Shown here: piece by piece, positions 2,051 through 64,000 of the stretch
Layout: every line of letters begins with the position of its first letter
Numbering within the stretch: the first letter of the stretch is position 1
Origin: Cyanidioschyzon merolae
Lineage: Eukaryota
Strand: one strand, 5' to 3'
Assembly: GCA_000091205.1 (NCBI GenBank)
Contig: AP006501.2
Length of the DNA stretch: 64,000 nucleotides
Made by a program: the position numbers and the translations under genes
The notes under the pieces: model-generated
The model's database searches: none
Told to the model about the DNA's origin: nothing
Seen by the model: only the letters and a program-made list of their open reading frames with translations

Positions 2051-2434
2051 CGATTGTATGCTCTGCGCAGCGTTGCTGCAGCCGTTTGCTGTACGCGCCA
2101 GTCGTACCTGCATATAGCCGCATGGCATTGCGCTGGATGCGCCGCTTCAGCGCACAGCGTCTGTTGCGCAGATCGCCAGCTGCGGCGACACAGCGAGATG
2201 CGGGGCGCGCACTCAGGCCGATACCTGCGTCGCTGTGGTACCCGTTGAACGAGGAGCATGTTTATCAGTTCGACGCCCTGTGTACGAGGCTCTGTGAGGA
2301 GTTTGAGTGTGCATTCACTTTCGAGACAGCTAGGTACCCGGTATTTCGTGCAAAGCAAGCACCAATCCCGTGTACGGCTTCGCACTTGCGTTATCCCCAC
2401 TGGTCCCGGCTCACTCCAGCGGACGGTGTGGTGT

Positions 2435-2562
2435 ATGGAGCTCCAGGTGGGAGACGCGGCACCTGATTTTCAGATGCCGACTGACCAGGGCGGTCAAGTT
2501 TCACTGAAAGACTTTCGGGGGCGTCCAGTGGTACTCTACTTTTATCCGAAAGCCAATACACC
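2435..2562 (+). CDS. Peroxiredoxin Q / bacterioferritin comigratory protein (BCP), exon 1
   Basis: Translation MELQVGDAAPDFQMPTDQGGQVSLKDFRGRPVVLYFYPKANTP matches the BCP/PrxQ N-terminus. The conserved PGCT motif is split: exon 1 ends ...aca cc, followed by a gtaagt donor at 2563. Confidence 0.85.
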
Positions 2563-2678
2563 GTAAGTTGACGTGCAAACTGCTTGACGACGCTTGGCAC
2601 CAGAACCAGAGACTAACCGCAAGGGAGCACTTGGCTAGGGCTGCTTTTGCAGCACCGGGCTGGTACGCGAAATCGCAG

Positions 2679-3027
2679 TGGTTGTACGACACAGGCTTGT
2701 GACTTGCGTGACAATATCGAGGACCTCAATAAAGTGGATGCCGTGGTTATCGGAGTTTCGCGTGACCCTGTCGCTGACTTAGCCAAGTTTCGGAAAGATC
2801 ATGGCCTCAACTTCTACCTCGCGTCCGATGCAGACGGATCCGTCACGGAAGCTTACGGAGTGTGGAAGTTGCGTAAGATGATGGGTCGCGAGTTCATGGG
2901 TATTGAACGCAGTACATTCATCATTCAGGACGGCGTGATTCGCAAACTGTGGCGCGGCGTGAAGGCCCCAGAGCATATCGCGTGGGTAAAGCGCTCGTTA
3001 GAAGAAATGAAAGCAGGTGCGAAGTAG
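2679..3027 (+). CDS. Peroxiredoxin Q / BCP, exon 2, after a 116-bp GT-AG intron (2563-2678)
   Basis: The acceptor ...aatcgcag|t restores cct-ggt-tgt = P-G-C, giving TPGCTTQACDLRDN...VVIGVSRD...LNFYLASD...STFIIQDG in frame and ending at tag 3025-3027. This is a close match to E. coli BCP and plant PrxQ. Confidence 0.85.
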
Positions 3028-3849
3028 ATCGTCTTATGTGGAACGGTTGGGTTGCAAATAGCTTCCGAACGGCTTTGTGACATGCGTACGTTGTTCACGG
3101 TGCGCGGGAACATGTCATCGCGATGGTCGACGATTTCGATGCCGACGGCGGAAGGTGCGGTCCCTGCTCCACTTTACCGGTGACCGCCATGGCCGGGGCT
3201 ATGCGGAAACGCGTGTGAGCGCACTGCAGTGGTCTGTTGGAGCATTTTACGGACGTGTTGCTGCATTGCAAGCGACAAAAGTAAAAAGGAATGCGAATTT
3301 CTCCGAGGAACTTACCTTTCTTCATGCAATGGGTCCCGTTCTGCTGTGAGACTCGTTTCCTCGTGCTAGAGGCAGATGCTTGGAAACAGGAGTTTTGTTG
3401 GATCAGCGCACAGCGCCTATTCATAGGATATGCTTCGTCTGGACACCCCTTGCGTTTCCGGAATCAATGAGAACGACTGTCCACATGATACAGCTGCTCA
3501 TCATCGGCGCCAGGTTCTTGTAAGCCCCAGGAAAATCACCGTCCCAGCTCACGGGCTTGCCCCGGCATGCCAAGTCGTCGTGTGAACCGCAGCGCAGCGC
3601 TCCGATCGGCAATCGAAAGCGCAGCAGTGCTGGTGCTTACCGTGGCGCGGCGCGCGCGTTGTGCCGCAGCAGCGGATAGCGCTCAGTCTCTAATGTGGTA
3701 CATATCAGAACAAAGAGGAACGGGTGACTTCAAACTGCTCGTTGCTCGCGACATCCGGAAACAGCTTTGGCGTCGCCAGCGCTACAGCTGCAGCTGTTTC
3801 TGTGAGCTCGACGCAGCCGCCAGTCTCGCTCATAAGTGCTTCGTCGTCA

Positions 3850-5256
3850 ATGTGCGAGCGACGAAGCTCATGTGTGCGGGTGCTGCCCCGAAGGCTTCTC
3901 GTTTTGCTCTGGTGCTTCGTGTACCTATGTGACGCACTGCAGCCCGCAGAGAGTGAAAAAGTTGATTCCAAGGCACTTTTCGACCAGGTTGGAACGACAC
4001 TTGTGTCTATAGAGCGGGTTCAACGCAATCACTTACGCACAGAGTACGGCTCTGTGCTGCAGCACTGCAAGGTGACCCTAAAGACGCTGGATAACTTTTG
4101 CAGGCGATCGTATGTAGCTTGTAACCAGACGCGCACGTGTGCGGAGCAATTAGAACCTTGGAAGGCCCGCGTTCATGATTTAAGCGTGAACCTAGAACGG
4201 CTGACAAGCGAGAGAATTCGCGAGCGCGAAGCTCACGCGGTTCGCGTGCGCGAGCTCGAGGCGAAACTTTCCGCAGCGCGCCAGACAACCGTCAATAGTA
4301 TCGATGAACAGCGCTTGATGCGAACAAGCGGCACCGCTGCTCTGTTCGGCAACAAATGGATGCCCACGGTCGGCAATAGGCTCCATTTGCCAGCCGTGCT
4401 GCTCCTCGTCAGCTTCGGCTACCTGCTATGCGTATTTGTAGGAAGGGCATCGTCGTGGCTTCGTTACCAGAGATCCTGTGCTGTTGTTGGTCATTTCCGA
4501 GCACGAAACAGTACCCGCTTCGACGCTGCGTTTCGCTGGGTTCGAGCCGTGGATTTGTTGTGTGCGGGCCTTTTTTTGATGGCCGTGTTCTTCCCAGGAC
4601 CGATCGCGCGAACGATGATGGAGTCTGAACGATCCTTGCCGCTGTGGAGCTCCCTGTGCTACTGGGCACAATGCATCGCATGCGTATCCGGAACGTCTTT
4701 GAATGCATTCGTCTTATTTTCCGTGTTTTGGAGGGCACGATCTGTTGGGGCACTTTCAGCCTTCATTTCTCTCTGTCTCGTTCGGAGCATTCACCTTGTT
4801 GCATCTGTCAGTGTCTTATACCATTCCAGCTTCCACTGGCGCATGCCAGCGACGACCGGTCTCTTCAATACCACCGTTGAAGCAGCACATTCGTATGACA
4901 TGATGACGCATCGCTTGCGGATCTACTTTCTCACGTATGGTTTCATTTTCATGTTGATGGCGTGGGACACGCACCAGCAACTCACCGATCATGCACCGCT
5001 CAGAGCAGCAGTGCTCACTGTCGAACGTGTACGTCGACTTTCGAAGAGCCGTCGGCCACGAGCCGCCCCCGAGAAAGCGTTATGCTATCGATCCCTTGTA
5101 TCTAGTCCCAGAAGAGGCATGCAGCCATCCCTGGAGTCAGGGTCGTCCAGATCATTTTCAACTCTTGAGTCTGGCGACTGGAAGACGCCGCCCTTGCGCC
5201 GCGTCGTTGCTGAAAAGCGAACTTGCGCGCGAACGGTTGTAAGTACACCAGACTGA
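3850..5256 (+). CDS. Hypothetical multi-pass membrane protein with a signal-peptide-like N-terminus
   Basis: Long ORF (3724-5256) with several hydrophobic helices and an N-terminal RRLLVLLWCFVYLCDALQP segment after the Met at 3850. I recognise no family. The coding call rests on ORF length only. Confidence 0.3.
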   Translation: MCERRSSCVRVLPRRLLVLLWCFVYLCDALQPAESEKVDSKALFDQVGTTLVSIERVQRNHLRTEYGSVLQHCKVTLKTLDNFCRRSYVACNQTRTCAEQLEPWKARVHDLSVNLERLTSERIREREAHAVRVRELEAKLSAARQTTVNSIDEQRLMRTSGTAALFGNKWMPTVGNRLHLPAVLLLVSFGYLLCVFVGRASSWLRYQRSCAVVGHFRARNSTRFDAAFRWVRAVDLLCAGLFLMAVFFPGPIARTMMESERSLPLWSSLCYWAQCIACVSGTSLNAFVLFSVFWRARSVGALSAFISLCLVRSIHLVASVSVLYHSSFHWRMPATTGLFNTTVEAAHSYDMMTHRLRIYFLTYGFIFMLMAWDTHQQLTDHAPLRAAVLTVERVRRLSKSRRPRAAPEKALCYRSLVSSPRRGMQPSLESGSSRSFSTLESGDWKTPPLRRVVAEKRTCARTVVSTPD

Positions 5257-6010
5257 ACCCGCCATAACATTGGACATTGTCAGTCATGTACAACGCTGAA
5301 ATGAGGCGCCAGATGTGCATGGAGTCCGCAAACAACATCTGATAGCGCTCGGGACGCTTAACAAGAGTCAGCGACCAGGAAATCATCCTAGTTCTTGATC
5401 ATTTCAAAACATTTGTCAACGAAACCGGGTCCTGCACGCTGGTTATTTTTCGCGCGAGGCTGTACTCGCTCCATGTACTGTTCCGTTGCAGCGTCACGAA
5501 TGCGGAATTTTCACGAGCGAATCTGAACAGTCTCTGTGCGATACACGGCTTTCAGTTAACCAGCGAGCTCTGTCCGTGCACTGCGCTTGCTCTACGCTTC
5601 ACGGACTGCGCAGTCGGCCAACTGCCGCCGGTGTGCGTTCAAACTTTGGGTGAACAGCGCAAGCGACCAGCGTATCAGGCATAGTGCTGAAGTCAAACTG
5701 AACGACGCAACGCTCTGTAACTGAGAATCAGCTCCGCCGATTCAGGGAGATGCACCCAAAGAAACGGTGAAAACAACGTAAAGAATCGAAGGGCTCTCAG
5801 ACCGACGTGGCGTTGGTACGCACTGGCTTGATGAAGCGCTCGTAACAGTAATCGAATGCAGTTACACGAGTGCCAGACTACAAGGAAAACAGTTCCGCTT
5901 AGCTAACTCGGGTGTACGAGCGAAAGCTTGCGCTGTTTCCAACTGTCATCAGCGTCAGCCTTGCGAGCTTTCTCTGCGACCGCTTCCTTTGCCTCTCTTG
6001 TATCTGCGGC

Positions 6011-7245
6011 TTTAGATACGCAGGTGTCTCTCGTGTACCGCCAGATCCATTGCCAACAGTCGAAAGATGATGTACGCTTTCAAGTCCTGATTCCGCTGCT
6101 TCCGGCTGCCGTTCATGGAGTACGAGGACCAGGGAAGACAACGATTTTCGCATTGCTTTTCATCTTTCATCTCGCTTGTATTCACCCTCGGTGCGCCGCT
6201 CACAACCGTGACACATGACTGAGGTCAGCAGTTCCTCTGCTGCACAACACGCTCTCCTCCGAATGCCGCCCTGGAGCGCGTGAACGCCTCGTTCATCGCT
6301 CGCGAGATGCCCATGGCGAGCACAGAAGGCCACCCGCGTTGCCGTCCTCTGTTTCAGCACCCAGTACGGTGCCCTGTGATCACGGGCTTCTTCGGGATGA
6401 TCCCCAGTGTACCTGGTGTTTTTGCGGTACGCGCAAGCACATGCTGTCGCCGTCAATAGATGGTGTGCGGAACCCGCTCATGCCCCCGAGGGATCACGTG
6501 CCGGAAGGCGAATCGCGCCCGGAGACCCGATCGAGCGGGTGTCGCAACGTCGACGCTCCCTTCGTGCAAGGCGGTGACGTGTGATCGGTTGGATGCATCC
6601 GGTACAACGAATCAAGTCCGAACTCCAGACTCTTTTCCGTACAAGTAGATTAGCGGGAAGCCTCTGAGAGCCGATGCCCTGAGAGCCATCACGCTTCTGT
6701 CGAGATCCGTTTTGTCGCTGAGTTCACAGAGACTAGGACTTGCGTTTCGAACGGAATCGTTGATTAGATGTGATTTGTTCAGGAAACGCTCGGAATGCAC
6801 TTGTGCACACATCGCTAGGGCACGACGTCGCGCTCGTTCCCCAGTGCATCCAGCGCCGCGCATTGCCGCGCCCACGAGTTGATTCAGAACTGAGAGAAGA
6901 TCGAAAACGTGCACGAACGCGTGAGCCTCTCATGCAGCATGTGAGGAATGGAGAAGAACAGAGGCTTTCGCGTACGAGCTGGATGACGACACTGGTTATT
7001 TTACGAATCGCTATTCGATGAAGTTGCGAAATATCTTGATTTCCAGTGACTCGACGAATTCCAGTAGCAATGGTTCGAGGTCATTTTGCGGAAAAACGGC
7101 GACTAGGAACGCTAAACTTACGTATGAGTCCGTAAGCCCTGCTCGCTCTACGTCGAATATCGATGCTGTTCATCTAGAACAAGTTCGGAAAACAATCCCC
7201 AGGCAGAAAGAGGTCACCCATTCATGTGCTCTTTCGGAATGGAAT
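6011..7245 (+). repeat. Copy 2 of the ~1.23-kb direct repeat, ending ~55 bp upstream of the ETF-beta start codon
   Basis: See copy 1. Copy 2 diverges from copy 1 after ~7245. Confidence 0.9.
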
Positions 7246-14037: not shown

Positions 14038-15069
14038 CAAAACGTGCAACTCCTGTCCTGTAGAAGTTAGCAACGCTTTCGTTTATCCTTTGCGGAAGGC
14101 GCGTGCGCGTCGCTTCACGGGAGCACGACAGGCGACCCGCGTATCGACGCCGGCATCGCGTGTTGCGCTGTGGCGATTTGAAATCAGCGCGCGCTGCCGT
14201 GCCTCGCAATGGACGTGCCCTGCTAGACGCAGTTGACAACTCGATCTATCTGTATTTTTCTCGAGTTCCTTGAGGAACGGAAAATTCAGGAAGCAGACGG
14301 GACGTCCTGGTTTGGATTCGCATCCTAAGGTGTAGCATTCATGAGTCGCAGTAGAGGGTGGTATACCGCGCATGTCGACGTTAGACGGTAAAACGATCTT
14401 CGTTGCCCTCTGAATGCTTCTGCGAAGTGCGAGCCGCGGCGCAAATATAGGTCCAGGAGCCGAAGCAAACGAAAGAACTATCGAGTCTTAAAAAGCGAAT
14501 TTCGATGAAAATGGGGCAGTGAACTGCTCGTTCTCTTCGTGGCTATCGATATTTTTAGACATCGGTTTTCAAGAACATCCTCGATATTCTATGTGCAGCG
14601 AATAAGGATTGTCGGATTCAGATGCAGTTTTTTTCTTCGGATTCAAAGTCGAGTTTTTGGAGTGGCTCTTTCGATGCTTTGTCGCTAAAATTTGAGATGC
14701 TGCCAGCTTCAAGGCGATTCGCGACGCCCACGAACAAGCGATCGTAAGATGACCGATGCTCGTTTCCAAGTCAAATGTCCTTGGCTCTGCTCTTTTCCGT
14801 TCCTGACGTGTCCCATGCTCAAAGAACGCATTCTTCTAGGTTTCAATCGTTATATTTTCAACGAAACTCGTGGACGTTGCCATATCCGCTCATGGATTTC
14901 CGAAGGAAACTATGCAACGTCGTCTCGCGACGCGCTTTTGATAAGCTCACACCCAAAGTTCATGGAGCGCGCACACGTCAAATAAACGATTCCGTTCGGA
15001 AGACATATCCTCCTGTGTCGGTGGCAATTGCCGAAACTGCACGCGACAGCAGCATTATCTCTCTCACCG

Positions 15070-15700
15070 CTTACGTTAGATTAGGCTCCCGGCTCTTCTG
15101 TTTGCACGGGAAATGGCCGTGGACTCGAACTTGCGGCCTAGCAGCGATTGCTTCCAATGGAGCATGTGTCAGCGATTGCAGGAAATTAGCGTAGACGGAT
15201 CGGAATTTCTGGATTTGGTCTCCATCCAGGTTTTTCCTCCCAGTACTTGTTTCATCCTAGACAGCATCGCGTGCCACAAATCCTCTGTCGAATGGAACCT
15301 CGTTCGCTCGCAGCAGACAGCGTGCTCGCCAACGGAAGCGCCCTGAATACACCTCTGATCATACGATATAGCGCAGGGAATGGAAGCGAAAAGCCTTGAG
15401 TAGCGCCCTCTGTACACTGCAAGGGCATGTATCGCGTGACGAAAGCGAGCCTGCCCAGGCCATGGGTGGTCCTCGGAGCAGGAGCACGTGCGGTGGACCA
15501 ATTGGAACACCTCACAACTGCCAAGTGTCACCGTTGCAAAGTGCGCAACGAGGCTGTACGCAAAGAATATGAAAATCGCCAGCGGAACATAGACTGGAAC
15601 TTCCGCCCGTGCAGTGTATGCGTCGACAGCCGCCAGATGCTGCGAAATTCGGATGATAACGCTGCCACCAATATCCGTCGACTGCTGACACGCGAGCCGG
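15070..15700 (+). mobile_element. TnpB/Fanzor-like degenerate reading frame, copy A
   Basis: Three motifs in order. At 15075-15110 there is LGSRLFCLHGKW (TnpB N-terminal LG.ARFVYN-like). At ~15200 there is GSEFLDLVSI (GIDLG-like). At 15520-15680 there is TTAKCHRC-x24-CSVC-x10-DDNAATNIRRLL, which aligns with ISDra2 TnpB SSQLCHDCG...CPNCG...RDENAALNIRR. The three pieces lie in different frames, so the copy is pseudogenised. Confidence 0.6.
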
Positions 15701-16890
15701 ACTCAAACAAGCGGGTGGTTATTGAAAGCCGGATCTTTGAGATAAGAAACCGAAGCTGGCGTGGAAATCCGCCTCAAAGGCTGGTGTTGACGGCAATTGC
15801 AAGACATCCAAACGTTGTTATGCACGCTCACATTGGGGGGGGGGACCTATTCCTTGCTACTCAGATGCATTTTTGTTGTGGACGCCCAAGTCAGCAAAGG
15901 GGACTCTTTCCATTTTATTCTGACGTGGAAATAGGTTTGGGTGAGCGAATAACGCGCCGAAAGTCGATATTAATCGCGTACCCAGGTCAGTCTGGCTCGG
16001 TGCATCGTTTCTAAACCGCAAAACCAGGACCACACACCTGTGGTATCCGGGGGAAGCTGCTAGTGCCGCAAATCATTTACACCGCATAGAATTCGCCGGG
16101 CAGTCTGATACGTATGTTTCAGGGCCAGAGCAGGGGCTCTTCTGTGCCGAAGGCTTCACGGACATTACCTAACGAGACGCGAGCATACCACCCAGACACG
16201 TCCATGAAACCCATTCGACACGTAATGCGTGGATACCTGTCCCAGTTTGATTCACCCCCGCATGCACAGCATGCAATACGGAGCTGGTATCCGCAAACCG
16301 CATCCTCGAAAGCTTCTTCTTCTTCGTTGTCCTATTCACTTGTGAAAGTTATACAAAAGCGACCCGAATACTCCAACGCCTTGTTCTTCAAACGAAGGTG
16401 CAGCTCTCTTGTCCCGTGCTACGATCCGGTAAAGACGGATATCGCTCGAATCCGATGCAGCGACTGCAGGCGCCCGCGTTAGGAGTGCGCTCTCTCCATG
16501 GGACCAGCGTAAACGCAGCATCATCTTGAGGAGCATCGCACACTGGGTGCGTAAAGCGCGGGATACTGCAGATTGCCGCTGGTGCGAATCCAAGCCAATC
16601 TGGGCAATGATACGTGGTCTACGAATTCAAGTCAGGATGGAGCATGCTTCATGTGTGCTGCTCCCGAAAAGTCGCTTTTCTAACGCGGTCACTCGGTGCA
16701 CCTCGTCCTGCAAATCGGTGAAGCGACCCAGCGGCATCATTCCTCACAACCCTCTGGTCCTAACTTGATTCATTTGGAATCAGCGATACCATCGCCAGTG
16801 ACGCGCAACAAGCGCTTACACGTTCTACCGGCAATACGAGCAGCGAGCAGCTCTTCCGCGCTGCTACGTTTCACGTGCTAATTACCGCTC

Positions 16891-22733: not shown

Positions 22734-24757
22734 CAATGAGCTCCGCTTCCGATGTAAACGTTATCCATAAAAACTTACAGAGTAAAGCCTCAAGTGTGCT
22801 GAAAGGTTGAATACGACCTCACTTTCACTTAAAGTAGGATCAAACCCGCAGCACCGGTGCGCAACTTGTCAAAAATTGTCGAGCTCCGGGAACTCACCAC
22901 GGCTCTGTTACAGTGAGCAAGATGCGTCCGTGCGTCCAACAAGAGACTCGTGGTCAAGTTGTTTATCCGATCGAGTAACGAAGACACGCTCGGGCGAAAG
23001 AAAGCGCTTCAAGAAGAGGCTGTGTATTCGGGATATTACAATTGGTGTACACCGTTTTGAAGGGGCATGCGCGATACCGATACCCATACAGCGCGATACA
23101 GCGATGACGAGAACCTGGTGCGTCGCTGAAGCTAAAGTTTGGGCCTCTTCAGAGCTGTTCACTAGTGCTGCTTGCTTGCACTATGGGGCATGCGTCAGCG
23201 AGACATGAGCAACTGCTAGGCGGGAGCGCGCTGAACGACGACCGCCATAGACGCTTTACGGTTCGTGCACTTCCCAGCTTGTCTTACGCTCATGCGAGAC
23301 TATGAAGGGATGGGTCCAGCAACTCGGATACACACTCTAAAGTTGGTATCTCTTGCTATTATCGTCAAGACAAGGCTTCTCGGGGTTTTCTGAGACAACA
23401 TCTTTTTCATCTTCCTTACCTTTCGGTGTATATTCTCCAGTGTACCTTTTTTTTTGCAGATCCGTTCATAGCAGTCGAGAGACACTGCTAGTACTCTGAA
23501 AGTCCCAATATCGCTGGTTTCGGATGCCGTTCTCGCACCCTAGGCATAGAATGTCGTTGCGATCTACACGCTGCATGCGAGAGTCATCGCCTTCGCATAC
23601 AGACAGAGTGTACCACGCTCAGCGGTGACACGTCGCGGTACTCAGGGATTCCCGTATACCCACAATGCATCCCGTTCCGAAGCGGCGCCCTGTGCCGCGT
23701 GAGCACTTCCTTCGCCGTTCCGTGCATGTTGTTGACTGGTAAAGAAGGCTTCTGTCGATGCCTTCCTCCATTCCTGTGCCCGGTGACATGCACGATGATC
23801 ACGGGCCCCTTCTGGACGATTCCCGCGGCGAGTACGCTACCCGCTGGGCACGCAAGCGCACGCTGCTCCATGCGGTAGCGCAGCCATGGAATGCAGTATT
23901 GCCCGTGATGAAACAAGCACCTGAATGGAACTCCAGAATCGGGATCCAGGCGAGAAATCCAGGACGATCCACGCTGCCTTCGTATGCGGCCGTGACGCGC
24001 TCATTAGTGGAACCGGTTGCGGCGATGACTGCAGCCCTCGTCCAGGACGCTATTCCATGCAAGCGGAATGCACAGAAGCTTCTGGGACCATACTTCGTGA
24101 TGGGCAATGCTTGTGTCGGATCTCGGTTCGACGATAGCCACGGAGAGCGGCGGCTTTGTTTTTTCCAAATGGAACAGGCTTCCTGACGTAAGCGGTTCCA
24201 TGAACTCGCCGCATGAGCCTGTGAATACGTCGCCAGCGGACATCGTCGCGTATTTTGTTTCCTCGTCAATCCAGAGATCCGCATTGCTGCGTCCACGAGT
24301 TGCCTGAAACAGACACATCGAACACCTTGAAGAATGCGTGATTGACGCAGAGGCCAGGCAAGCAATCGAGAGGAATCGAGGCGACTGCACATGCGTGGAT
24401 GGTGGTATTGTTTTAATGCTGCGAAACCCGTGATCGACGGCGCTGGAACTCATCATGATTCCGGTGGTGAAATCGAATTGCAGCGTCAGGGAATCGAAGG
24501 AGCCTCCACGGAAACACGACCGAAAATATAAAATTCCGCATGCATCCCCAAGCTCTTGTTGCTCTACCTTGAACGTTGATGCAGCCCAAGCAAAAAAGAT
24601 CGAAAAATATCGAAAGATAGGCGCAAAGCGAGTCATTCCATGTTCCATTATAATCTGACATGAGTGTAGGCAGGCACTGGTGTTCAGGTACGCTCCTCCG
24701 AATTTTATTCTGAACGCTCCGGCTCTGGCTACCTATACGGATCACGTTTTCGATGAG

Positions 24758-31331: not shown

Positions 31332-32909
31332 GAGGTCAAACAATGAATAGCGCGTCCCAGCACTGTGGCGGGCGTTGCTGTTGACAGTCTGTTTCCAACG
31401 GGAACTATCCTGGACGCAGGCGAACGCGTCAACTCCAAGTCTCCGACCAGGTATGGTGCTATCGCTGCTGCTCAAGTGCAGGATGGTGGTAAAGCTATCG
31501 CGAATCTACGACGATGACACTCACAGCGTCGTTCGCAGCGGAGAAAAACCGTCGATACTGTGTCGAACGCGAGCGTTCAACGAGAAAAACTCACTGAAAC
31601 GCGAACAGTCGTGATGAACAGGTGCTCAGCGGGGTTTCCCGCACGGCACGCCGCGAGGCGCCTCACCCGAGTGAAGTGCCCGAGGAGCTTTTCGGTCACC
31701 TAGCTGCCTCCTAAACGCCACCTTTCAGCTAGCTTCGTAGTCAGTGCGAACTCCTTTCCGTCAGCGTTGCCGGAGCCCTGTACTGAAGCGCGCTTTCTAG
31801 CTTGACCACGAATGGTCGCCGCTTTTGGAAAGCACGGCTGCAGAAAGGAAGATCACGACCGCAGCCTGCCTTTGTGCAATCTGCGTCGTGCTCGGTAACA
31901 ACCTGTATGAGCTTGGGTTAGAAATCCGCTTTAGCAAGTGAGACTCGAGTCTCCGCGGTACCGGGGATCACGAACCGGTTAGCGAGCTTGGTGTGCTGAA
32001 GGCGCCTCGTAGGGCACCAGGCTCCCGAAAACTGGTGTTCCTCTTCCAAGGCAAAGGTAGCTGCAATCGTTCGCTATGGAAAATCTCTCAAAGTCTTTGC
32101 GGTGGAACAGGACTCGCAACCAGTTTCGAGACGATCACGCCCAGAGAACCGGTGATAGAGGCAGGTCCGCGAACCGCGCCTGATAGACCAAAACCTCCGA
32201 ACGAGAGCCAAGGGGTTCCTAGTCTTGCCGTGACCTCCTTCAAGAAAGCGCTTTTGTACGCTTGCGTATTCACTTTTTATACAAAGGTATGTTGTTCATC
32301 TCGAAAACGAAGAGAGAAGGGTCAGAGTGATAGGGCCAGAGGCCTTCTCACCGTCTACATCCATGTCAGATCATCATGGAAAACTGCACTAGTCGTTCTG
32401 CTCGTGCCTTATGACTTTTTTGATTTTTCTGCAGTACAATCTGGGTATTCATAGTCCAGCGATAGAGGGTTACGGAAACAGAGGTAGGTCTTGGGTTTTC
32501 GTCTGTCTTTTTTGGACGGCTCCTTGGGATTTTTGTCGCTGGACTTTGTTCCATCATCGGAAGCAACCTGATCCACGATGCACTCGTACAAGGGGTTCCT
32601 CAACTGATCGAAATCAGCATCCTATGCATTGTTAGATGACTCCACACTTGTTCGATCTTTACGGTTAGCAGGTCCAAATAACGCGTTCTTTCAACTATTC
32701 AATCTTTCTGGCCGAGGCAACTCCTGGGCGCAGCAATTCGCTCTGCGGGATTCACAAGCAAACACTCCATAATGTTGCTTGATGCGTCGTTCACACGCTC
32801 ATGCCGAACGTTTACTGAACTTGTCACGCCAAATAATTGATTCTGTTCCGAGTACAAACCCTTCTATCTGTGCGTCCGTGTACAAAACGGCAATCCACAG
32901 CAGCATGAT

Positions 32910-33563
32910 TTGCCTCATGCGATATGCTCCCAGAGACTACCGTTTCTCCTGCTTGGATGCAAAAGGGTCACAGATTCGCACCTAATTCATCAGAGCGACG
33001 AATATCAGGGGCGTATGTGTCTTCGCTTTGCCCGAAGTGACCATGGAAGGATCAAAATTTTGGGACTTGATCTCGAGCCTAGATTCTCCTTCCGGTACTT
33101 GGTACATCGTGGACAACATCATGTTACAGAAATCCTGTTCTGAACAGAGCAGCGTGCGCTTTTGTGTGCGTCGGACAGCGTACATGCAGGGCGGATCGCC
33201 TGGCTGAAGCTCGTGATCCTTGGGTTAAGCAGCAGTTGTGGAAACCGAAGAACGCGTCGCGAGGAGCCTTCAATACCCATCAAGAGCATCTACGGAGCAA
33301 CAAGTGAGGCGGCCGTGTGGCACAGTTCGGTCTCCGGAGGAGGCGCAGAAGTTGTGGTGGACATACGGGACCACCTGACCATACGCAGGTGCGACAAATG
33401 CGAAGGGCGCACACAGACAGTATCCAAACGACAAGATGAAAGTGACATGCGCAACGTTGATCGAAACTACCGTCTATGCACGGAGTGTGTTGACTATGGC
33501 CAGCAACTACGAATTTCGGGTTGCAAACCTGCCAACAACATCCATCGATTGCAGACAGCGTAA
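32910..33563 (+). mobile_element. TnpB/Fanzor-like compact reading frame, copy B; one frame with a single in-frame stop at 33141-33143
   Basis: Motifs in order: LLGCKRVTDSHL at ~32950 (LG..RFV-like), ILGLDLEP at ~33057 (RuvC-I GIDLG-like), VVDIRDHLTIRRCDKC-x26-CTEC-x13-ANNIHRL at 33370-33550 (OrfB zinc ribbon plus RuvC-III-like). The layout matches copy A despite low sequence identity. Confidence 0.5.
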
Positions 33564-34270
33564 CCGATGGGAACGCAGCGCACTGGGTGTTTCAGGCACG
33601 GGATACGAAAGGGGACATGACATCAGTCACAGGAAAAGCCCTGGAAGGCCGCAGGCGATAGCAGCGGGAAACCCCCGAAACGTTAGCGTGCACGCTCGAG
33701 TCAGAGGACCCATTCCTATGCATCCTCGCAAATGCAGGGATGCTGCCTTACCGTACCCTCGCCGTCGACCTAGGGAAAAACGATTGCAAAATCCGTTCGA
33801 GAGTCATACCGAGACATATTGTTCACTCGTGGAGGCTCGTGTCGCGTCAGCCACAGCTCAAAAAGCCACGTATTGGGTTCATCGTCTATGCTCACTCGAT
33901 GGAAGCGCCGTCGACCGACGACTAGTTCGACTTCACCTGCAGCCGCTACGTACCATTGAATTCCGCTCCAGACTGGGCCCGCACAAAACTCGCTCACATA
34001 TTTGACCAGATAAAAAAGCGTGCTTGAAACCCTGCCTCGAAGCTTCTCAGGCGTCCATCGTTACCAGCGGCACTTGTTTCGAACGCCCACGCCTGCATTT
34101 CTATTGTTCAGAGCATCGCAACGAGAGCGTGTTTGTCTATACACCGACGTGCAGACGCCTCCCAGCCTTTTCGACCGGCCCCCTGCTATCAGCCTCAGCT
34201 TCTCCTTGCACACTTCGGAATGAAGAGGTTGTCCCACAAAATTCACTTGCGTCAGCACCGCGGATCTCGT

Positions 34271-35342
34271 CTACAGCATCGCACATTGTCTGATATTAAG
34301 AGCGGCGTTAACGTCTCGGTTCACGAACTCACTGCGTTTCTTGCCGCCGCTTGTACTCAGGATCGCGAGGATTCCTAGTACTCGTGCCCAGTGTGCCACA
34401 ACAGTGTCGTCATCGGCCCGCCGGGCGAGCGCTTTTTCTCTTCTATTTTCCCTGTTCTTCTTCGTCATTTGCTCTATTTCGATTGATGGTCGGCGAATAT
34501 GGTATTGATCGTTCACTCCCGGCAGCGGGTACTGGCGGCCCCGAAGGATACCCGACTTGAATGTCCATATCTTTATTTTTTTAAAATCGAACCCAGTTTG
34601 AGCGCGTATGCTATAAACCGCGAAAAATCGCCTGAATAGACTTCCGTGAGGGTTGAAATACGATTGAGACGAAAGACTATACTTTGCTATGACTTCAACG
34701 CAAATGGACCGCCTACGTTACAGCCACACGCTAATGATCAGGATCGCGTTTCCCTTCAACGGCGATAGACGCATCGTATCTCATGCCTCCCAGATATGGA
34801 GGCTGGCGTATCGACCGAACTATCTAGAACGAGGAACGGAGACTAGGCACTACATGGCAACTCGATAACAATTTCGATCCTCGCTACGATAAGCGCTAAA
34901 ACGGGAAATCGTTTCCGAAGTGTCGAAAGTCTACCTCACAGGCGGCAGGTCCCGCGAGCCGGACGTCTCTCCCGGGCTGGTGCTTCATGCTCCCCCAGTG
35001 CCCGGTGCTGTTGCGAGGCCTGAGCAAATCGCCCGCAATGCACTTGATCCTGGGACCAGGAGCGCGTAAACTGCATCTAGGCGTCGGCTTGGTCGCCGAA
35101 GTATCCCAGTATATCGCTGCGCGCTCCACAGGCGGGACGTCTGTCTGCGCAGCTTGCAGACTCCCCGAATGCTTGTGTTCTCCGATGCCGTGCGGAACGG
35201 ACCACGCCTCGAATCGATCCACTATGTAGTCTGGCAATGCCGTTCTGTCTCTATGCTGCATCTGCATCGCCGTTAAGGGTGCCAAGGCAAGTGCTCTAGG
35301 TACGCAAAGCCCCCGATAGAACGCACAAAACGACCGGTACAT
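34271..35342 (-). mobile_element. TnpB/Fanzor-like degenerate copy B'
   Basis: The N-terminus MYRSFCAFYRGL (G..RFV-like) sits at 35342 and the C-terminal FVNRDVNAALNIRQC (RuvC-III RDxNAAxNI) at ~34288-34330. The interior is interrupted by stops in all frames. The 5' third is ~88% identical at DNA level to 63880-63945 (copy F). Confidence 0.5.
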
Positions 35343-35368
35343 CCGAGAGGAACTCTATATGATGGTAC

Positions 35369-36406
35369 ATGGTAGTATTGCGCAGCATGATGGAAACTTG
35401 GTCGTTTACGGGTACCCATCGATCACGCAAGCTGGGACCCATGGTCAATATAAGCGACTTTTATCATCCGGAAATCGTCAAGCGTTGCGGTCGGTGCGCA
35501 GATGCGTTGCACTGCGACACGCCCAGAGGCCGGTGCGTTCCAGGCTCCGCCCGAGTGCTGCTGCTTGCTTGTCTGTTTCTTCTCTCGTACTTCATGGATC
35601 AAGTGAATAGTTCTAACTCACTAACAATTGCAATAGTTGGTTTCGGCAACTTCGGACAGTTTTTGGCGAAAGCGTTTGTTCAGGCCGGTCACCGGGTGAT
35701 CGGACATTCGCGCACCAACTACGAAGCGATTGCGAGGCAGCTCGGTTGCGGTTTCGAAACCAGTGCGGATGCGCTGATGGACCTCCATAATCCTGACATT
35801 GTCGTGTTATCGACTTCGATACTCTCAACCGAAGAGGTCCTGCGCCGATTCCCGACAGCGAAGCTTCGGAGCTGCCTCGTTGTCGACGTGCTGAGCGTCA
35901 AGGTGTATGCACGGGAGCTCATGCTACGCTACGCACCTGAAGAGGCTGATATTTTGGCGACGCATCCCATGTTTGGTCCAGAGTCAGGACGTGGTTCATG
36001 GCGGGGCTTACCATTTGTCTTTGAGCGCACGCGAGTTCGTCAGCACGAGCGTTGCGAGGCCTTTCTATCTATCTTTCGGGAGCGTGGTTGCACGCTCATC
36101 GAGATGCCATGTCAAGAACATGATCACTATGCGGCGAGTACACAATTCATCACCCATACGACAGGTCGCATGTTGGCCGAGCTCAAAATTGCCTCCACAC
36201 CAATCAACACCCGCGGCTTTGAAGCACTGTTGGCGGTTGTAGAGACGACGGTGCGGGATTCTTTCGATCTCTATTACGGTTTGTACCGCTTTAATCCGAA
36301 TGCAAAGCAAGAGTTGGAGAAGATGCAGCGAGCACTCGAGCAAGTACGAGCCCAACTCGAAGCGTACGACCGCAAGTGTCGCGAGGCTGAAGCACGCTCA
36401 GCCTGA
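35369..36406 (+). CDS. Arogenate/prephenate dehydrogenase (TyrA), plant-type
   Basis: IAIVGFGNFGQFLAK...ILSTEEVL...VDVLSVK...THPMFGPESG...CEAFLSIFRERGCTLIEMPCQEHDHYAASTQFITHTTGRML...STPINTRGFEALL...DSFDLYYGLYRFNPNA is near-collinear with Arabidopsis arogenate dehydrogenase. The N-terminal ~75 aa (hydrophobic VLLLACLFLLSYF) may be a targeting sequence. An alternative start is ATG 35594. Confidence 0.8.
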   Translation: MVVLRSMMETWSFTGTHRSRKLGPMVNISDFYHPEIVKRCGRCADALHCDTPRGRCVPGSARVLLLACLFLLSYFMDQVNSSNSLTIAIVGFGNFGQFLAKAFVQAGHRVIGHSRTNYEAIARQLGCGFETSADALMDLHNPDIVVLSTSILSTEEVLRRFPTAKLRSCLVVDVLSVKVYARELMLRYAPEEADILATHPMFGPESGRGSWRGLPFVFERTRVRQHERCEAFLSIFRERGCTLIEMPCQEHDHYAASTQFITHTTGRMLAELKIASTPINTRGFEALLAVVETTVRDSFDLYYGLYRFNPNAKQELEKMQRALEQVRAQLEAYDRKCREAEARSA

Positions 36407-38553: not shown

Positions 38554-38744
38554 GGTCGCGTCTCGAAACGCATAAAGCGTTGAAACGCCACAAGCACCAA
38601 CGATGCACCTATTGCTTCGAGTCGCTTGCGTGACGCCGGCGGCGATTCTTTTCCTTCATTGACAAAACGTGTACTGAGGCCAGCGTTCTCCGATGATGCG
38701 CTTTTTTCTATTCTTAGTTTTTTTGTGTTGTTTTCCAGTGCACG

Positions 38745-39000
38745 GTGAGGTATCTATCAAACCCCTACCTCCATGTTACATTACCGATACTTCATCTCGG
38801 ATATTCTGGTCGTTTCACCGCCGATGAGGATGATGATCGCCTTTGTCGATGCACGCTGCATTCGTCAACTGAAAACCGCACCGGCGATGGGCGCGCATCG
38901 AGTGCGGCAGCGGCAATCGGCGAACGACGTATCGGGAGGGTATCCATTTGGATCGTTGGGTGATATTCTCGGTGAACGTCAAGTCGGTGTAAAGCGTTTC
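38745..39000 (+). mobile_element. Short fragment of the TnpB/Fanzor-like family (copy E) inside the PDHB/HEAT divergent intergenic region
   Basis: 38790-38830 CTCGGATATTCTGGTCGTTTC is homologous at DNA level to 63655-63690 (copy F) and to the reverse complement of 35320-35345 (copy B'). It encodes LGYSGRFTAD (LG.ARFV-like). Confidence 0.3.
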
Positions 39001-40014: not shown

Positions 40015-40979
40015 AAACCCTCTGACGCTGCACGCGCCGGTCTATGCCCAGAATCCGTATTGAGACTCTGACGACATGAACCAGATAAAATATCTTTTTT
40101 GGCTCTGAACTCGCTACTCACATGGACCTCTGCAAGTCCCGAGCCGTCTCCGCTTTACGCGTTCCCAGGGCATTGCCCAGCATCGTTCTGGAGCCAGCGC
40201 CGGTCACCCTGTACACGGAAGCATCCCAGAAGCTTCGCCGGAGGTGTGCAGCGTTTCCAGCGCAAACACGCGACCGGAGTGATGCAGATCGGAATGCAGC
40301 AGCGCAATCATTATCGTGTTATTGAAAGGTTGGTAACGGAGGCTTTTCTATCCTGACCTAGAATGCCGTTAAACCCGTATCAGATGAATATCGAGAACTG
40401 AACTGGTTGTTGTGGTGCTTTCGTGCGATATTTTTCCATGCTCTTTTCAGATGTACAGTCGGGATATGCAAAGTGCAGCAACATGAGCTACTGGATGCAT
40501 GTGTCGTGTTACGGCTTTCGATCGTTTGTTCGGTTGCGCTCTTTCGACGTTTTGCCGATGACAATCGTGACTTGATCGGAATCAAGCGGATTCTCAAAGC
40601 CTTCAACCAAAGCTTCGTAAAATAACCGATATCCTTATCTGATAACAACGCAGAGGCCCTTGCAACACTCCTTTCCATACTTGAAACATGCTCAACTCAT
40701 GCATTCTTCATGTTTGCAGTCTTTCGGTTTCAACGCACGTCGTGCGTGCAGCAATTCGCACCGCTGAATTGACGAGAAAATGGACGGGACGTCGTCCCGT
40801 GATTCCTTGTTCAACAGCTCATGCCGAAATCTGACGGGACTTTTTTTCTTTGATTCCTCACATAGGATATATGCTCCCAGAGGCTCCCGTCTTTTCTGAC
40901 CGCCTGGATAAGCGACTTGGACCTGGACTCGAGGCACCACAGCGATCGCTTCCGATCCCGAGCGCGTCAGTAATTTGCG

Positions 40980-41500
40980 CGAAGCGAGCGTAGGTGGATC
41001 CAAAAATTTCTCGACGTGATCTCGAGTGTGGATTTTCTTTCAGCTACTTGTTTCATCCTGAACAACATTGCGATCTACAAATCCTATATCGAATCAAACA
41101 ACATGCGTTTGCAGCGGAAAGAGTACTCGCGGAAGGGATGGCCCAATGAAAGCCCGTGATCGTAGGGCACGGCACCGGGTGCGGAAATGATGGGCGGCAT
41201 CGAGGCGAGCCTTCTGTTGAGGTACGGGTATGCAGGGTGGGATGAATCAGGCGTTCAAGCGGCACGGGTCGGCCCTCGGAAGAGGACAGGTTGGTAGACT
41301 TATAGGTGCACCTGACCACGACGAAGTGTCTCGGCTGCGAAGTGCGCTTCCAGGGATGAGTGCAAACAGGATGACAATTCCAAGCGACGTTTGTATTGCA
41401 ACAATCGCATGTGGATGAAATGGGTCAGCAACAGCTGAAGGGATCGAGAATGGGACTCGAACGCCACCACCAACATCCTTCGACTGCTGGCAACGAAACT
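40980..41500 (+). mobile_element. TnpB/Fanzor-like degenerate copy C
   Basis: KFLDVISSVDFLSATCFILNNIAIYKS at 41000-41090 is homologous at DNA and protein level to copy A (EFLDLVSIQVFPPSTCFILDSIACHKS). DSNATTNILRLL at 41454-41489 is RuvC-III-like. Frameshifts and stops lie between them. Confidence 0.4.
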
Positions 41501-41927
41501 CGAGGGGAGTGAGAGACCGGCTCATTGAAAGCCGGGAATATGAAAGCGGACAAGGAAGCTGTCGGAGAAAAATCGCATCATAGCTGGTTTTGATGGCATT
41601 AGGAAAAGACGCAAACCTCAAACTGGACCCCCGAGTTAGCTGAGTGCACTCATCGCATTTTATTCTGATACGGCTGCTGTCTGCGATCAAGATACCCCTG
41701 TTGATTGTTTTGTTACCGTATGCGCCTGCTCGTTTGGATTCTGACCTGGCTCCCTTGCAACCGAGAAGCAGCCGGTGCTGGCGAAAACACAGATGCTGGC
41801 TCGCCGCGCACCGAATAACCTCGATACGCTGCAACTTTGGCAAACGTTTGACGCACGTCGCTAAACCGTTGAACCAGCTGCCGCGTATCCCGTCACTGTA
41901 CTGCGAACAGGTCGCGCCCATGCGTTC

Positions 41928-45981: not shown

Positions 45982-46184
45982 ACTCGATAAAGAGCGTGCC
46001 ACTCGGCAACACACACTCGTTGCCGGGCCCGTGAGGAACAGCACCTTGCCGCACTGTCGCTAGGGATGCAGTTTCTAGATAACGTTTCCAGAGGGCAGCG
46101 ATGAGTCTCCGTGCGCGGATGCGCGTCCTCATCGCTTGAGCATCGTGATCGCCCGCCGTTGTACCACTGGCGATCATCCGCTGC

Positions 46185-47232
46185 GCGTACACGTATACCA
46201 GTGCGTGTCCATGGATGCTTTTCTACATGCATGCCTATACGTGTCCAATGGTATGTATCCATGTCCATGGGTGCTTTTCTACATGCACGCCTTTACGTGT
46301 CCAACGGTATGTGTCCGTGTCAATGGATGCTTTTCTACATGCATGCCTATACGTGTCCAATGGCATGTATCCGTGCCCATAGATGCTTTTCTACATGCAT
46401 GCCTATACGTGTCCAATGGCATGTATCCGTGCCCATGGATGCTTTTCTACATGCATGCCTATACGTGTCCAACGGTATGTGTCCGTGTCCATGGATGCTT
46501 TTCTACATGCATGCCTATACGTGTCCAATGGTATGTATCCGTGTCCATGGATGCTTTTCTACATGCACGCCTATATGTGTCTAATAATATGTGTCCGTGC
46601 CCATGGGTGCTTTTCTACATGCACGCCTATATGTGTCTAATAATATGTGTCCGTGCCCATGGGTGCTTTTCTACATGCATGCCTATACGTGTCCAATGGT
46701 ATGTATCCGTGTCCATGGGTGCTTTTCTACATGCACGCCTTTACGTGTCCAACGGTATGTGTCCGTGTCAATGGATGCTTTTCTACATGCACGCCTATAT
46801 GTGTCTAATAATATGTGTCCGTGCCCATGGGTGCTTTTCTACATGCACGCCTATATGTGTCTAATAATATGTGTCCGTGCCCATGGGTGCTTTTCTACAT
46901 GCATGCCTATACGTGTCCAATGGTATGTATCCGTGTCCATGGGTGCTTTTCTACATGCACGCCTTTACGTGTCCAACGGTATGTGTCCGTGTCAATGGAT
47001 GCTTTTCTACATGCACGCCTATATGTGTCTAATAATATGTGTCCGTGCCCATGGGTGCTTTTCTACATGCACGCCTTTACGTGTCCAATGGTATGTATCC
47101 GTGTCCATGGGTGCTTTTCTACATGCATGCCTATATGTGTCTAATAATATGTGTCCGTGCCCATGGGTGCTTTTCTACATGCATGCCTATACGTGTCTAA
47201 TAATATGTATCCGTGTCCATGGGTGCTTTTCG
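46185..47232. repeat. Minisatellite: 56-bp unit x ~19, each unit containing CCATGG, CATGCATGC (RY-like) and ACGTGT cores
   Basis: Unit CCATGGATGCTTTTCTACATGCATGCCTATACGTGTCCAATGGTATGTATCCGTGT repeated head-to-tail with point variants. The long Cys-rich ORFs across it (46136-47250) are repeat artefacts. Confidence 0.95.
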
Positions 47233-48366
47233 CTCTGGATATCAGAGTAATTTGGATGACAGGGCCGAGCGCTTCGCTCGAGTCCGTCGACGAGTTCCAG
47301 ACGTCCAGCGAGGGTGTGTTCGTTTTTTCAGTACAACGTGCATAAAAGATGAGCAACATGCCGTTTACATAGCGGACGTCCAAGCATCGCCTTCAACAAC
47401 GAGCAGGAAACGGACGAGGGTACCCGCCTTGCCATGCATCAACCGCGCCTGGGGCGATCGCGCGTCTAGTATTGTTACGTTTAGAGTCAACGCGTCGAGG
47501 CAACTCGTCAGTCGCCGCTGCGCATTGGAGTGCTCTCTGTGGCGAGCCCCCGGACTCGCGCAGAAAACCCAAGTTCAGGGCAACAACTCGATTTAGAGTA
47601 TGTAGTAGACCGATGATCGCAAACCTATCAATCTTCTTTGCAAAATCAAATCCGAACGGGAATGACAGAAAGCACCCAATTGGAATCACCCGAGCCATTT
47701 GCAGTACTTGGAGGCGGAAAAGCGCCAGCCGTCACCCATCCCGATGCGTAGCTACGTGTTGCTGGCGAGCTGCCCTGCGACGCAGCTCGCAACGCGTACC
47801 CTGAAACCTTGAACACCCCCGTTGCTTGATCGATGACATGCGGAAGCGTCCGTTCAGTAGATCGATCCGATTTTTCACCGCTTCATCGGCTGGGTTCGCG
47901 CAGCACTAGGGGTGCGCTTCCGTGTATCGATGGTATCCTAAAGAGACTCGGAGAGCAGCGCAACACCATCGCGGTCGATGCTGCCAATGCGATTCACGGG
48001 GATCGCCTGCGGATGCACGCGCCAGTCGGAGATCCCGCCTAGAGACGGAGCGCTGCACATCGCTTCCTCGTCCTGCTCCTCCGATTCAATGTGCGGCTGC
48101 AGGCGCGCCTGCCTTTGAGGTTGTCGCACCCAACGCCTGGCTACGCTAGGCAGAAGCCAAGGCGTCTGTACTATCGTGCAAATCGGCCGCATTCATCAAA
48201 AAAAGGAGGCTGCCTTAGCCGAACACGCAGTGCATGAAGCGCTTCTCCTAGCCGTCGTGCGGGGTACACCATTCGCGAGACTCGTATCGCCCCAGAATCC
48301 TGAGAATAAAGTACCGAAATTTGGTCGGGAGCTCAACATACTAGGTTCAAGACGAGATTTCCAGAT

Positions 48367-51747: not shown

Positions 51748-52030
51748 AGGAAGCAGAAGCAGAAGCAGCAGCAGGTTGAGCTAACGTTCATCAAGGCAAC
51801 TACACACTGATCTACCTTTGTTTGATGACTACGGCAGTAGAAATGTCGCCACTAGGAAGCAGTAGCAGGAGGTTGAGCTAACATTCAACAAGGCTACTAC
51901 AAACTGATCTATCTTTTTTAGATGACTACGGCGGCAGACAAGTCTCCACTAGGAAGCAGCAACAGGTCGAGCTAACGCCGATGAAAGCAACTACATGCAA
52001 TACCCTTGATAAGTGACGACTGCAACAGTT
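51748..52030. repeat. ~100-bp tandem repeat x ~2.8
   Basis: Units begin AGGAAGCAG(N)AGCAGG..GAGCTAAC.TTCA.CAAGGC.ACTACA.ACTGATCTA.C at 51748, 51854 and 51951. The repeat lies immediately 5' of the minus-strand gene ending at 51618. Confidence 0.8.
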
Positions 52031-63396: not shown

Positions 63397-63612
63397 TTCG
63401 CTTCGCCCGAGGTGCTCGGTCCTCGGTTATGTGAACACTGGAATACCTGCAGAAGTGCAGCAAGCAAAACGCAGTGACGCCTCGTTTCCGAGCGCACGAC
63501 GCCGACCGCAAACTCCGTTGCCTCTCGAGATGCCGGGCCCAGATTTCGCATATGTTGTGATTGTTTCGATGACAAAACATCCATTTACCATATATCCCCG
63601 GTTTCGGGATGG

Positions 63613-64000
63613 ATGGATAATGGCTTTCGGGAAAGTTTCTATTATGATGCAACCTACCTTCAAGTGCCATTAGTCAGACTTCCTTCCGGATATACTGGTC
63701 GTTTCGTATGCTCTATTGAGCGTCGAGCGCCTGCCGTGAGCGCCTGCCGTAGCGCTCATACCGCTGAAGCAGATGCACCGCAGCAGCGAAACAGCTTTGC
63801 CATACCACTGAGGGCGTCCGCTCGAGGCGTAGTTCACTCGACACGGGGTCGGCGTACATCAGCATTCTGGGAGCCTGCGAGCTGCGCAGACAGACGTACT
63901 GCCTGTGGCAGCGCGAAGCGATATACCAGGATACTTCGGCGACCAAGGCGATGCCCAAACGCAGCATACCTGTTCCTAGTCCAAGAATAAATTGCGCTGC
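63613..64000 (+). mobile_element. TnpB-like family copy F, truncated by the window end
   Basis: GYTGRFVCSIERR (LG.ARFV-like) at ~63660. DNA of 63880-63945 is ~88% identical to the reverse complement of 35090-35150 (copy B'). Confidence 0.4.

Follow-up and report, generated by a model that had tools for sequence, protein, structure and literature searches.

A probable internally deleted Fanzor1 transposon copy upstream of a dehydrogenase gene in Cyanidioschyzon merolae

TnpB and Fanzor proteins are RNA-guided DNA endonucleases that take their guide RNA from the 3′ end of the element. For the red alga Cyanidioschyzon merolae, Bao & Jurka (2013; PMC3627910) described one Fanzor1 family, CMe-1A. 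Its copies, about 150 in number, lack terminal inverted repeats (TIRs) and show ~80% identity to a consensus of ~3 kb; over its 5′ 635 bp the family is given as 95% identical to TE-N2_CMe, an element of its own with ~70 copies. We analysed a 64,000-nucleotide stretch of contig AP006501.2 (the window; C. merolae 10D chromosome 19) and in it a minus-strand element, B′, lying in unannotated DNA directly upstream of an arogenate/prephenate dehydrogenase gene with its annotated start at 35594. An earlier note, made from the letters of the window, had drawn B′ as the relic of a nuclease gene, with relatives E and F further along the same stretch.

B′ is very probably a dead, non-autonomous, internally deleted copy of CMe-1A, with its 5′ part in common with TE-N2_CMe. 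Together with F and E, it fits the published account of these two families by organism, protein family, full-copy length, absence of TIRs and a 5′ module that may be separable. Unlike CMe-1A, with its ~3 kb and single Fanzor1 open reading frame (ORF), B′ measures 1.34 kb and keeps both ends while most of the ORF is gone; an internal-deletion derivative of this kind is not described for CMe-1A in the relevant passages of PMC3627910. The parts of B′ are listed below.

34143-35480, minus strand: B′ as a whole, within conservative limits; probably an internally deleted, non-autonomous Fanzor1-element copy, both ends collinear with ~3.1-kb metagenome copies.
34834-35480, minus strand: distal 5′ module (~645 nt), the part shared with F; candidate equivalent of TE-N2_CMe (nhmmer E 1e-50; B′/F alignments).
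34545-34833, minus strand: proximal part of the 5′ noncoding region, which directly precedes the Fanzor1 ORF in almost every full-length copy (matches in about 30 loci).
34896-35342, minus strand: 148-amino-acid ORF (MYRSF..., starting MYRSFCAFYRGL), judged spurious; the frame is not conserved among copies.
34390-34544, minus strand: lysine/arginine/glutamate (K/R/E)-rich putative remnant of the ORF N terminus with the deletion junction (...ARRADDDTVVA joined to HWARVLG...), collinear with two short copies.
34145-34389, minus strand: C-terminal ~80 codons of Fanzor1, including RuvC-III (NRDVNAALNI, 34318-34292); tblastn with the ORF of metagenome locus L001, 55% over 82 amino acids, E 6e-21.
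34271-34273, minus strand: premature stop codon TAG within the conserved C-terminal region (CAML-stop-TRSAVLTQVNFVGQPL in B′, CAVLETRPPELTRENFVGQPL in relatives).
34050-34142, minus strand: possible degenerate 3′ tail, weakly assigned; similarity to metagenome locus L040 continues to 34114.

Collinearity with full-length copies

Full-length copies for comparison all came from hot-spring metagenomes, at ~70% identity to B′; besides L001, a 59-kb metagenome contig, 80 further loci were retrieved with the family profile. Related full-length copies measure ~3.1 kb (for example, L040 2465-5590), against ~1.34 kb for B′, and consist of a 5′ region (equivalent to window ~35468-34572), a ~2-kb ORF and a 3′ part (equivalent to 34389/34345-34143). 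In L001, positions 2138-3044 align with 35441-34545 (69% over 915 nt) and positions 5072-5273 with 34345-34142 (70%), and ~2 kb of L001 separates the two aligned blocks. Such two-block collinearity, with constant end points, recurs in about 60 loci. Collinear at both ends with ~3.1-kb copies and missing ~2 kb between them, B′ is best described as an internal-deletion derivative of a ~3.1-kb element. On these alignments its interior, which had been called decayed, is absent: relative to the ~3.1-kb copies, ~1.8-2 kb is missing, comprising the REC/WED domains, RuvC-I and RuvC-II.

Searches with family proteins (tblastn) found neither RuvC-I (GxDPG) nor RuvC-II (DEFRTS) segments in B′ or in the whole window, and no further Fanzor ORF similarity elsewhere in the window; of the long family proteins, only the last ~60-80 residues (residues ~459-559) were found. 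An uninterrupted ORF of ~600-900 amino acids is absent from B′, the longest frame through the RuvC-III motif being 81 amino acids. With one of three catalytic segments kept, the recognition domains gone and a premature stop in place, B′ cannot encode a nuclease.

B′ extends from ~35480 to ~34143 (possibly ~34050), beyond both of the ends first proposed for it, 35342 and 34271. The 5′ boundary is reproducible across copies (...GAT(T)nTTTCCG-ATGACAAAAC, window ~35480-35467), and similarity reaches its 3′ limit at ~34143 in dozens of loci. No TIRs join ~35470-35480 with ~34050-34150 of B′, and no obvious target-site duplication was seen around the element, the 3′ end being too uncertain to call one.

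Coding remnant and its Fanzor1 relatives

B′ was confirmed as a TnpB/Fanzor-type relic on the minus strand, and its RuvC-III motif as genuine. FVNRDVNAALNIRQC lies in frame at ~34330-34286, and RDVNAALNI at 34318-34292 (minus strand) is the sole match to the relaxed pattern [RHKDN]Dx[NS][AGS][AGS]x[NV][ILVM] in all six frames of the window. NRDVNAALNI of B′ aligns with NRDFNAAINIR and NRDLNAAANIR of relatives. The 81-amino-acid minus-strand ORF ends ...EFVNRDVNAALNIRQCAML at 34271; protein homology passes straight through this stop (CAML-stop-TRSAV against CAVLETRPP) and runs on for 43 codons to about 34145, which marks B′ as a pseudogene. Its C-terminal part matches P0112 (64% over 56 amino acids) and the intact 699-amino-acid protein P0172 (44% over 59 amino acids, E 1e-12). 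With the translated 3′ part as query, we recovered three metagenome proteins with a common ...KRMEFVNRDVNxAINIRxCAVLETxPPxxTRENFVGQPLKVELYEKKLEAVxGGRSK... stretch.

The parent protein family is Fanzor1, as indicated by a family profile and by a predicted fold, both of which match solved Fanzor1 structures. The profile (A5; 76 diverse full-length homologues, Cyanidiales included) matched PpFz of Parasitella (9cf0, E 2e-20), SpuFz of Spizellomyces (8gkh, E 9e-12) and GtFz of Guillardia (9cer, E 1e-5). For P0172, the closest intact relative of B′, the AlphaFold model had a predicted local distance difference test (pLDDT) score of 88.9, and a Foldseek search of the PDB with this model placed SpuFz, PpFz and GtFz on top (E ~1e-17, template modelling (TM) score 0.52-0.72), with Cas12f and Fanzor2 scoring far lower. 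B′ is tied to the family through its last ~80 codons only, the fold test having used P0172 and not B′. Adjoining ORF fragments of L001 (FTGMIETDGVA..., VVGAYPGNTNIITIAAP, VVAYGAERW...TPAPSTRTYKECARRFATIPVDEFRTSYTHH and NRDFHAVINVR) follow the expected order of RuvC-I, RuvC-II and RuvC-III, and relatives in the B′ family carry GADPGNTNI, VDEFRTS and NRDFNAAINIR. A second search returned 154 relatives and an exhaustive profile search 1402 proteins, many of 600-700 amino acids; no intact family ORF above 700 amino acids was present in 82 loci, where the longest had 594 (L003). Pfam and NCBIfam gave no hit for B′ fragments at E<=10, the Cyanidiales relatives were likewise without a TnpB-model hit, and sub-threshold PF07282 hits (E ~2e-3, below the cut-off) occurred in two of ten distant homologues. 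Against the PDB, phmmer with single proteins and a shallow 26-sequence profile gave chance hits only.

The likeness to Fanzor1 proteins with solved structures (SpuFz 8GKH/9CEU, PpFz 9CF0, GtFz 9CER) lies in the profile of the parent family, the P0172 fold and the RuvC-I/II/III order; unlike them, B′ keeps only RuvC-III and the C-terminal tail and carries a stop, and the nuclease of the Cyanidiales family is a predicted one. Prokaryotic TnpB of IS200/IS605/IS607 elements has the same RuvC-III RDxNAAxNI as B′, and non-autonomous TnpB derivatives (palindrome-associated transposable elements, PATEs; deletion derivatives resembling miniature inverted-repeat transposable elements, MITEs) follow the same logic, their short forms keeping the ends and losing the coding body. 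Unlike TnpB, however, B′ and the Cyanidiales proteins have no Pfam OrfB/Cas12f1-like_TNB hit and match the Cas12f fold much more weakly than Fanzor1; nor is a TnpA gene present, or are subterminal hairpins kept in B′. If the analogy with TnpB and Fanzor holds good, the product of the intact parent would be a DNA endonuclease guided by RNA from the 3′ end of the element.

The 34544-34390 stretch, which joins the two conserved parts of B′, had no match among full-length copies. Two short copies on other contigs, L064:7696-8187 (plus strand) and L069:4560-4872 (minus strand), are collinear with 34627-34156 (minus strand) at 72-74% identity. In all three, a K/R/E-rich stretch ending ...ARRxDDETVV is joined directly to ...ARVxGxxAxxSxxGxKxxEFVNRDxNAAxNI, and stop codons occur in all three. 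Intact homologues have RPDR...ETVVK near residue 55 (P0172, consensus A5); judging from the short ETVVK motif, B′ would carry an in-frame fusion of the N-terminal ~50-55 residues to the last ~70-100. Since three diverged copies share one junction, the deletion derivative was probably propagated, the short form of the element being copied as such. It may have been mobilised in trans by full-length elements.

The 5′ region, the 3′ tail and competing gene models

The noncoding 5′ region of the element, ~900 nt long, is still present in B′. Loci L017, L038, L039, L060 and L078 match it only as far as window 34834/34825/34808 and several loci match only 35352-34834 or 35125-34825, which fits a separable ~640-nt module; at ~645 nt, the distal module of B′ agrees in size with the 635 bp given for TE-N2_CMe (PMC3627910), a comparison by description and not by alignment. 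More proximally, about 30 loci have a counterpart of 34795-34572 (67-75% identical), which precedes by ~0.6 kb the sequence hit by P0100, a query whose N terminus is incomplete, and in L001 the 5′-region homology stops at 3044, ~20 nt beyond the ORF start at 3021. Several metagenome loci have an inverted 5′ module placed head-to-head with a full element and directly upstream of it, while of the full element's own 5′ region no more than the proximal ~220 nt is left (L020 1471-2677; L058 209-1212; L010 2828-3376; L073 660-1190; L078 2438-3407).

Two gene models compete with the deletion-derivative reading in this region, and both begin from the 148-amino-acid ORF, which is present as the earlier note described it (35342 to 34896, minus strand). 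The note took MYRSF for the start of the nuclease. With an ORF beginning at 35342 and RuvC-III ~1 kb downstream on the same strand, B′ could be a full TnpB/Fanzor gene copy whose middle has decayed by point mutation, perhaps with an intron before the RD motif, but this is highly improbable. The span of ~1.1-1.3 kb falls short of the ~2.1-kb ORF (699 amino acids) of intact relatives, the counterpart of 35441-34545 in full-length copies precedes the ORF and does not correspond to it, family proteins used as tblastn queries hit the window with nothing but their last ~80 residues, and the MYRSF frame is not conserved. The intron-like CGCAG/GTGAGT junction has one G instead of two and reads CGCAGTGAGT; translated, this is K-R-S-E-F, in register with KRMEF of relatives, and DNA and protein alignments run gap-free across the site, where relatives have ATGGAG, not GTGAGT, opposite AGTGAG of B′. 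By these alignments the supposed splice site is ordinary coding sequence. That the ORF is instead a real lineage-specific gene of the host or the element is barely credible, although gene callers pick it on several metagenome contigs and it is open in 10 of the 11 database variants. These variants come from near-identical strains and differ by only 1-2 residues, so their openness is uninformative, and one is frameshifted into the frame of F. The ORF lies wholly within the 5′ region that precedes the Fanzor ORF of full copies, where no ORF is conserved. Homologous 5′ regions (65-72% identity), in F and in metagenome copies, have stops and frameshifts at its site; a 1-nt indel sets F apart from B′ in mid-ORF; and across 12 copies the open stretches fall in differing frames, with translated similarity equal in every frame. 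The ORF had no Pfam or NCBIfam hit and is absent from the NCBI annotation. We judge the MYRSF ORF to be spurious and not the start of a nuclease. The earlier note thus spotted a real feature and modelled it wrongly, its observation and its interpretation both standing in part.

At the other end, full-length metagenome copies finish in ~100 nt with three conserved hairpins, terminating ...GAACGGCGTT. The terminal hairpins are GGAGACGTTTCGTCT, GGGCGGGTTTCTCGCC and CGTCGTTCGACTTTCGAACGGCG (alignment A7: L056:5770-5865 and about 50 other loci), and similarity stops right after ...GGCGTT. The last hairpin occurs in two sequence variants, both of which pair, in a shifted register, as seen by hand inspection and not as classical covariation. 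These hairpins are a candidate guide-RNA scaffold or DNA end structure. The B′ tail (34142-34050) does not keep the three hairpins. Folding z-scores were modest (B′ -0.4, family mean -1.1, family consensus -2.2), RNAalifold found no consensus structure in 53 element 3′ tails, and Rfam gave no credible family (whole window at the gathering threshold; 33900-35600 at E<=1), with no tRNAs.

Several points weigh against reading B′ as an internally deleted copy of CMe-1A. B′ was equated with CMe-1A/TE-N2_CMe by organism, size, architecture and protein family, not by alignment to a Repbase consensus, and its full-length comparators are hot-spring metagenome sequences at only ~70% identity, none of them from the C. 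merolae genome. What links 34390-34544 to the ORF N terminus is a short motif, and the 3′ limit of B′ could shift by about 90 nt. The guide RNA is a putative one, given no Rfam match, no RNAalifold consensus and modest z-scores.

Genomic setting and placement beside host genes

Two further pieces of the family lie in the window.

63556-64000, plus strand: F, the 5′ end of a further copy, truncated where the window stops (nhmmer hit at 63564-63818, E 5e-56; alignments; 5′ boundary).
38763-38816, plus strand: E, a short piece of that 5′ module in which the CGGATATTCTGGTCGTTT motif occurs (nhmmer E 2e-8, envelope 38743-38832).

Homology of the B′ 5′ part to F, as claimed from the letters, was confirmed: 35040-35399 matches 63995-63633 (71% over 363 nt, E 9e-47) and can be aligned further, to 35450/63580, and the reverse complement of 35090-35150 is identical to 63880-63945 at 56 of 61 positions with one 1-nt indel (92%). 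A profile built from metagenome copies only recovered F (63564-63818, E 5e-56), B′ (35473-35226, E 1e-50) and E (38763-38816, E 2e-8). The match proposed for 35320-35345 at both F and E appears as an 18-mer, CGGATATACTGGTCGTTT, present with at most two mismatches at 35345-35328 (minus strand), 38798-38815 (plus strand) and 63687-63704 (plus strand), three sites against 0.03 expected. The shared sequence is complex, and the long B′/F match, the profile hits and the 18-mer at all three sites argue against similarity limited to short low-complexity stretches. F begins a second copy, which may be a full element, a TE-N2-type short element or another B′-type form; E amounts to ~55-90 nt of this 5′ module. 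An extension of E back to ~38643 was rejected, the similarity being weak and by eye only and the profile search giving no support. The proposed grouping of B′, E and F therefore stands as homology (for E, over 38763-38816 only), whereas the added claim that they are more recently related to one another than to the other copies is moot, since the other window repeats are an unrelated family.

Self-comparison of the window placed this second repeat family at 709-2048, 5902-7244, 14689-16011, 23492-24449, 32608-33560 and 40735-41670, with 709-2048 and 5902-7244 96% identical over 1.34 kb and the others at 65-75%. It has no similarity to B′, F or Fanzor proteins and no Pfam hit, and it also occurs in Cyanidiales metagenome contigs outside Fanzor elements. 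These repeats were accordingly rejected as parts of Fanzor elements, having no similarity to the element or its protein, and are not TnpB-like. Of these repeats, 32608-33560 comes to within about 0.5 kb of the 3′ end of B′. Elsewhere in the window, a tandem array of ~1.25 kb (46092-47343; period 56 nt, roughly 22 units, ~88-92% identity) overlaps long plus-strand open frames, and 51761-51954 holds two 97-nt tandem units at 85% identity.

Long intron-free ORFs of the window exactly match C. merolae 10D proteins (entries BAM82907, BAM82909, BAM82910, BAM82911 and BAM82918), and on these matches we take the window to be nuclear DNA of that alga. The genes include CMS323C, the arogenate/prephenate dehydrogenase (BAM82909), pyruvate dehydrogenase E1-beta (BAM82910), a HEAT-repeat protein (BAM82911) and CMS335C. 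The ORF at 35369-36406 starts 75 codons upstream of the annotated dehydrogenase start (35594) and enters the transposon 5′ end; metagenome gene calls of 275-347 amino acids for the dehydrogenase probably include spurious N-terminal extensions of that sort.

The 5′ ends of B′, F and E lie 114 bp from the start codon of the dehydrogenase, 160 bp from that of CMS335C and 190-210 bp from that of E1-beta, respectively, all three divergent. A 5′ module end that faces a divergent gene start 70-1000 bp away was seen at all three window sites and at about 12 of 14 metagenome loci (head-to-head: L001, L011, L022, L026, L027, L039, L040, L041, L042, L053, L059 and L074). This count is crude, gene proxies being raw ORFs of at least 150 amino acids, with ~12 distinct metagenome loci head-to-head against 1-2 not. 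The pattern could reflect promoter-directed insertion, selective retention or co-option. Co-option of the relic or its 5′ module, as part of a bidirectional promoter or of regulatory sequence serving the neighbouring dehydrogenase gene, or as a source of non-coding RNA, would account for the proximity of the three 5′ ends to divergent genes, for the excess of head-to-head metagenome loci and for the presence of the B′ insertion in all related strains sampled. We nonetheless consider it very unlikely: an insertion preference, or purifying selection against other placements, explains the placements equally well, the gene proxies were raw ORFs, no Rfam match was found, and the sampled strains are such close relatives that a shared insertion does not imply constraint. 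A broader proposal joins two claims, namely that B′ belongs to a distinct, propagated Cyanidiales 'mini' Fanzor1 lineage (5′ region, in-frame fusion of N and C terminus, and 3′ end) and that the 5′ module integrates or is retained head-to-head with host promoters, 70-1000 bp from the start codon; taken jointly, these are unlikely to hold.

As a dead copy of an old family already described in C. merolae, B′ is a real feature that matters little in itself. With it, 1.3 kb of unannotated DNA separating two C. merolae genes can be put down to the relic of a transposon family catalogued in 2013, and the analysis removes a spurious 148-amino-acid ORF that metagenome pipelines have called repeatedly. 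That three diverged copies have one junction in common suggests that a Fanzor1 element has been mobilised in non-autonomous forms. The head-to-head placement offers a testable hint on how such elements choose sites, or survive, in a very gene-dense genome; were the joint proposal true, it would mean promoter-directed, orientation-specific targeting, or exaptation as bidirectional promoters, in an extremely compact eukaryotic genome.

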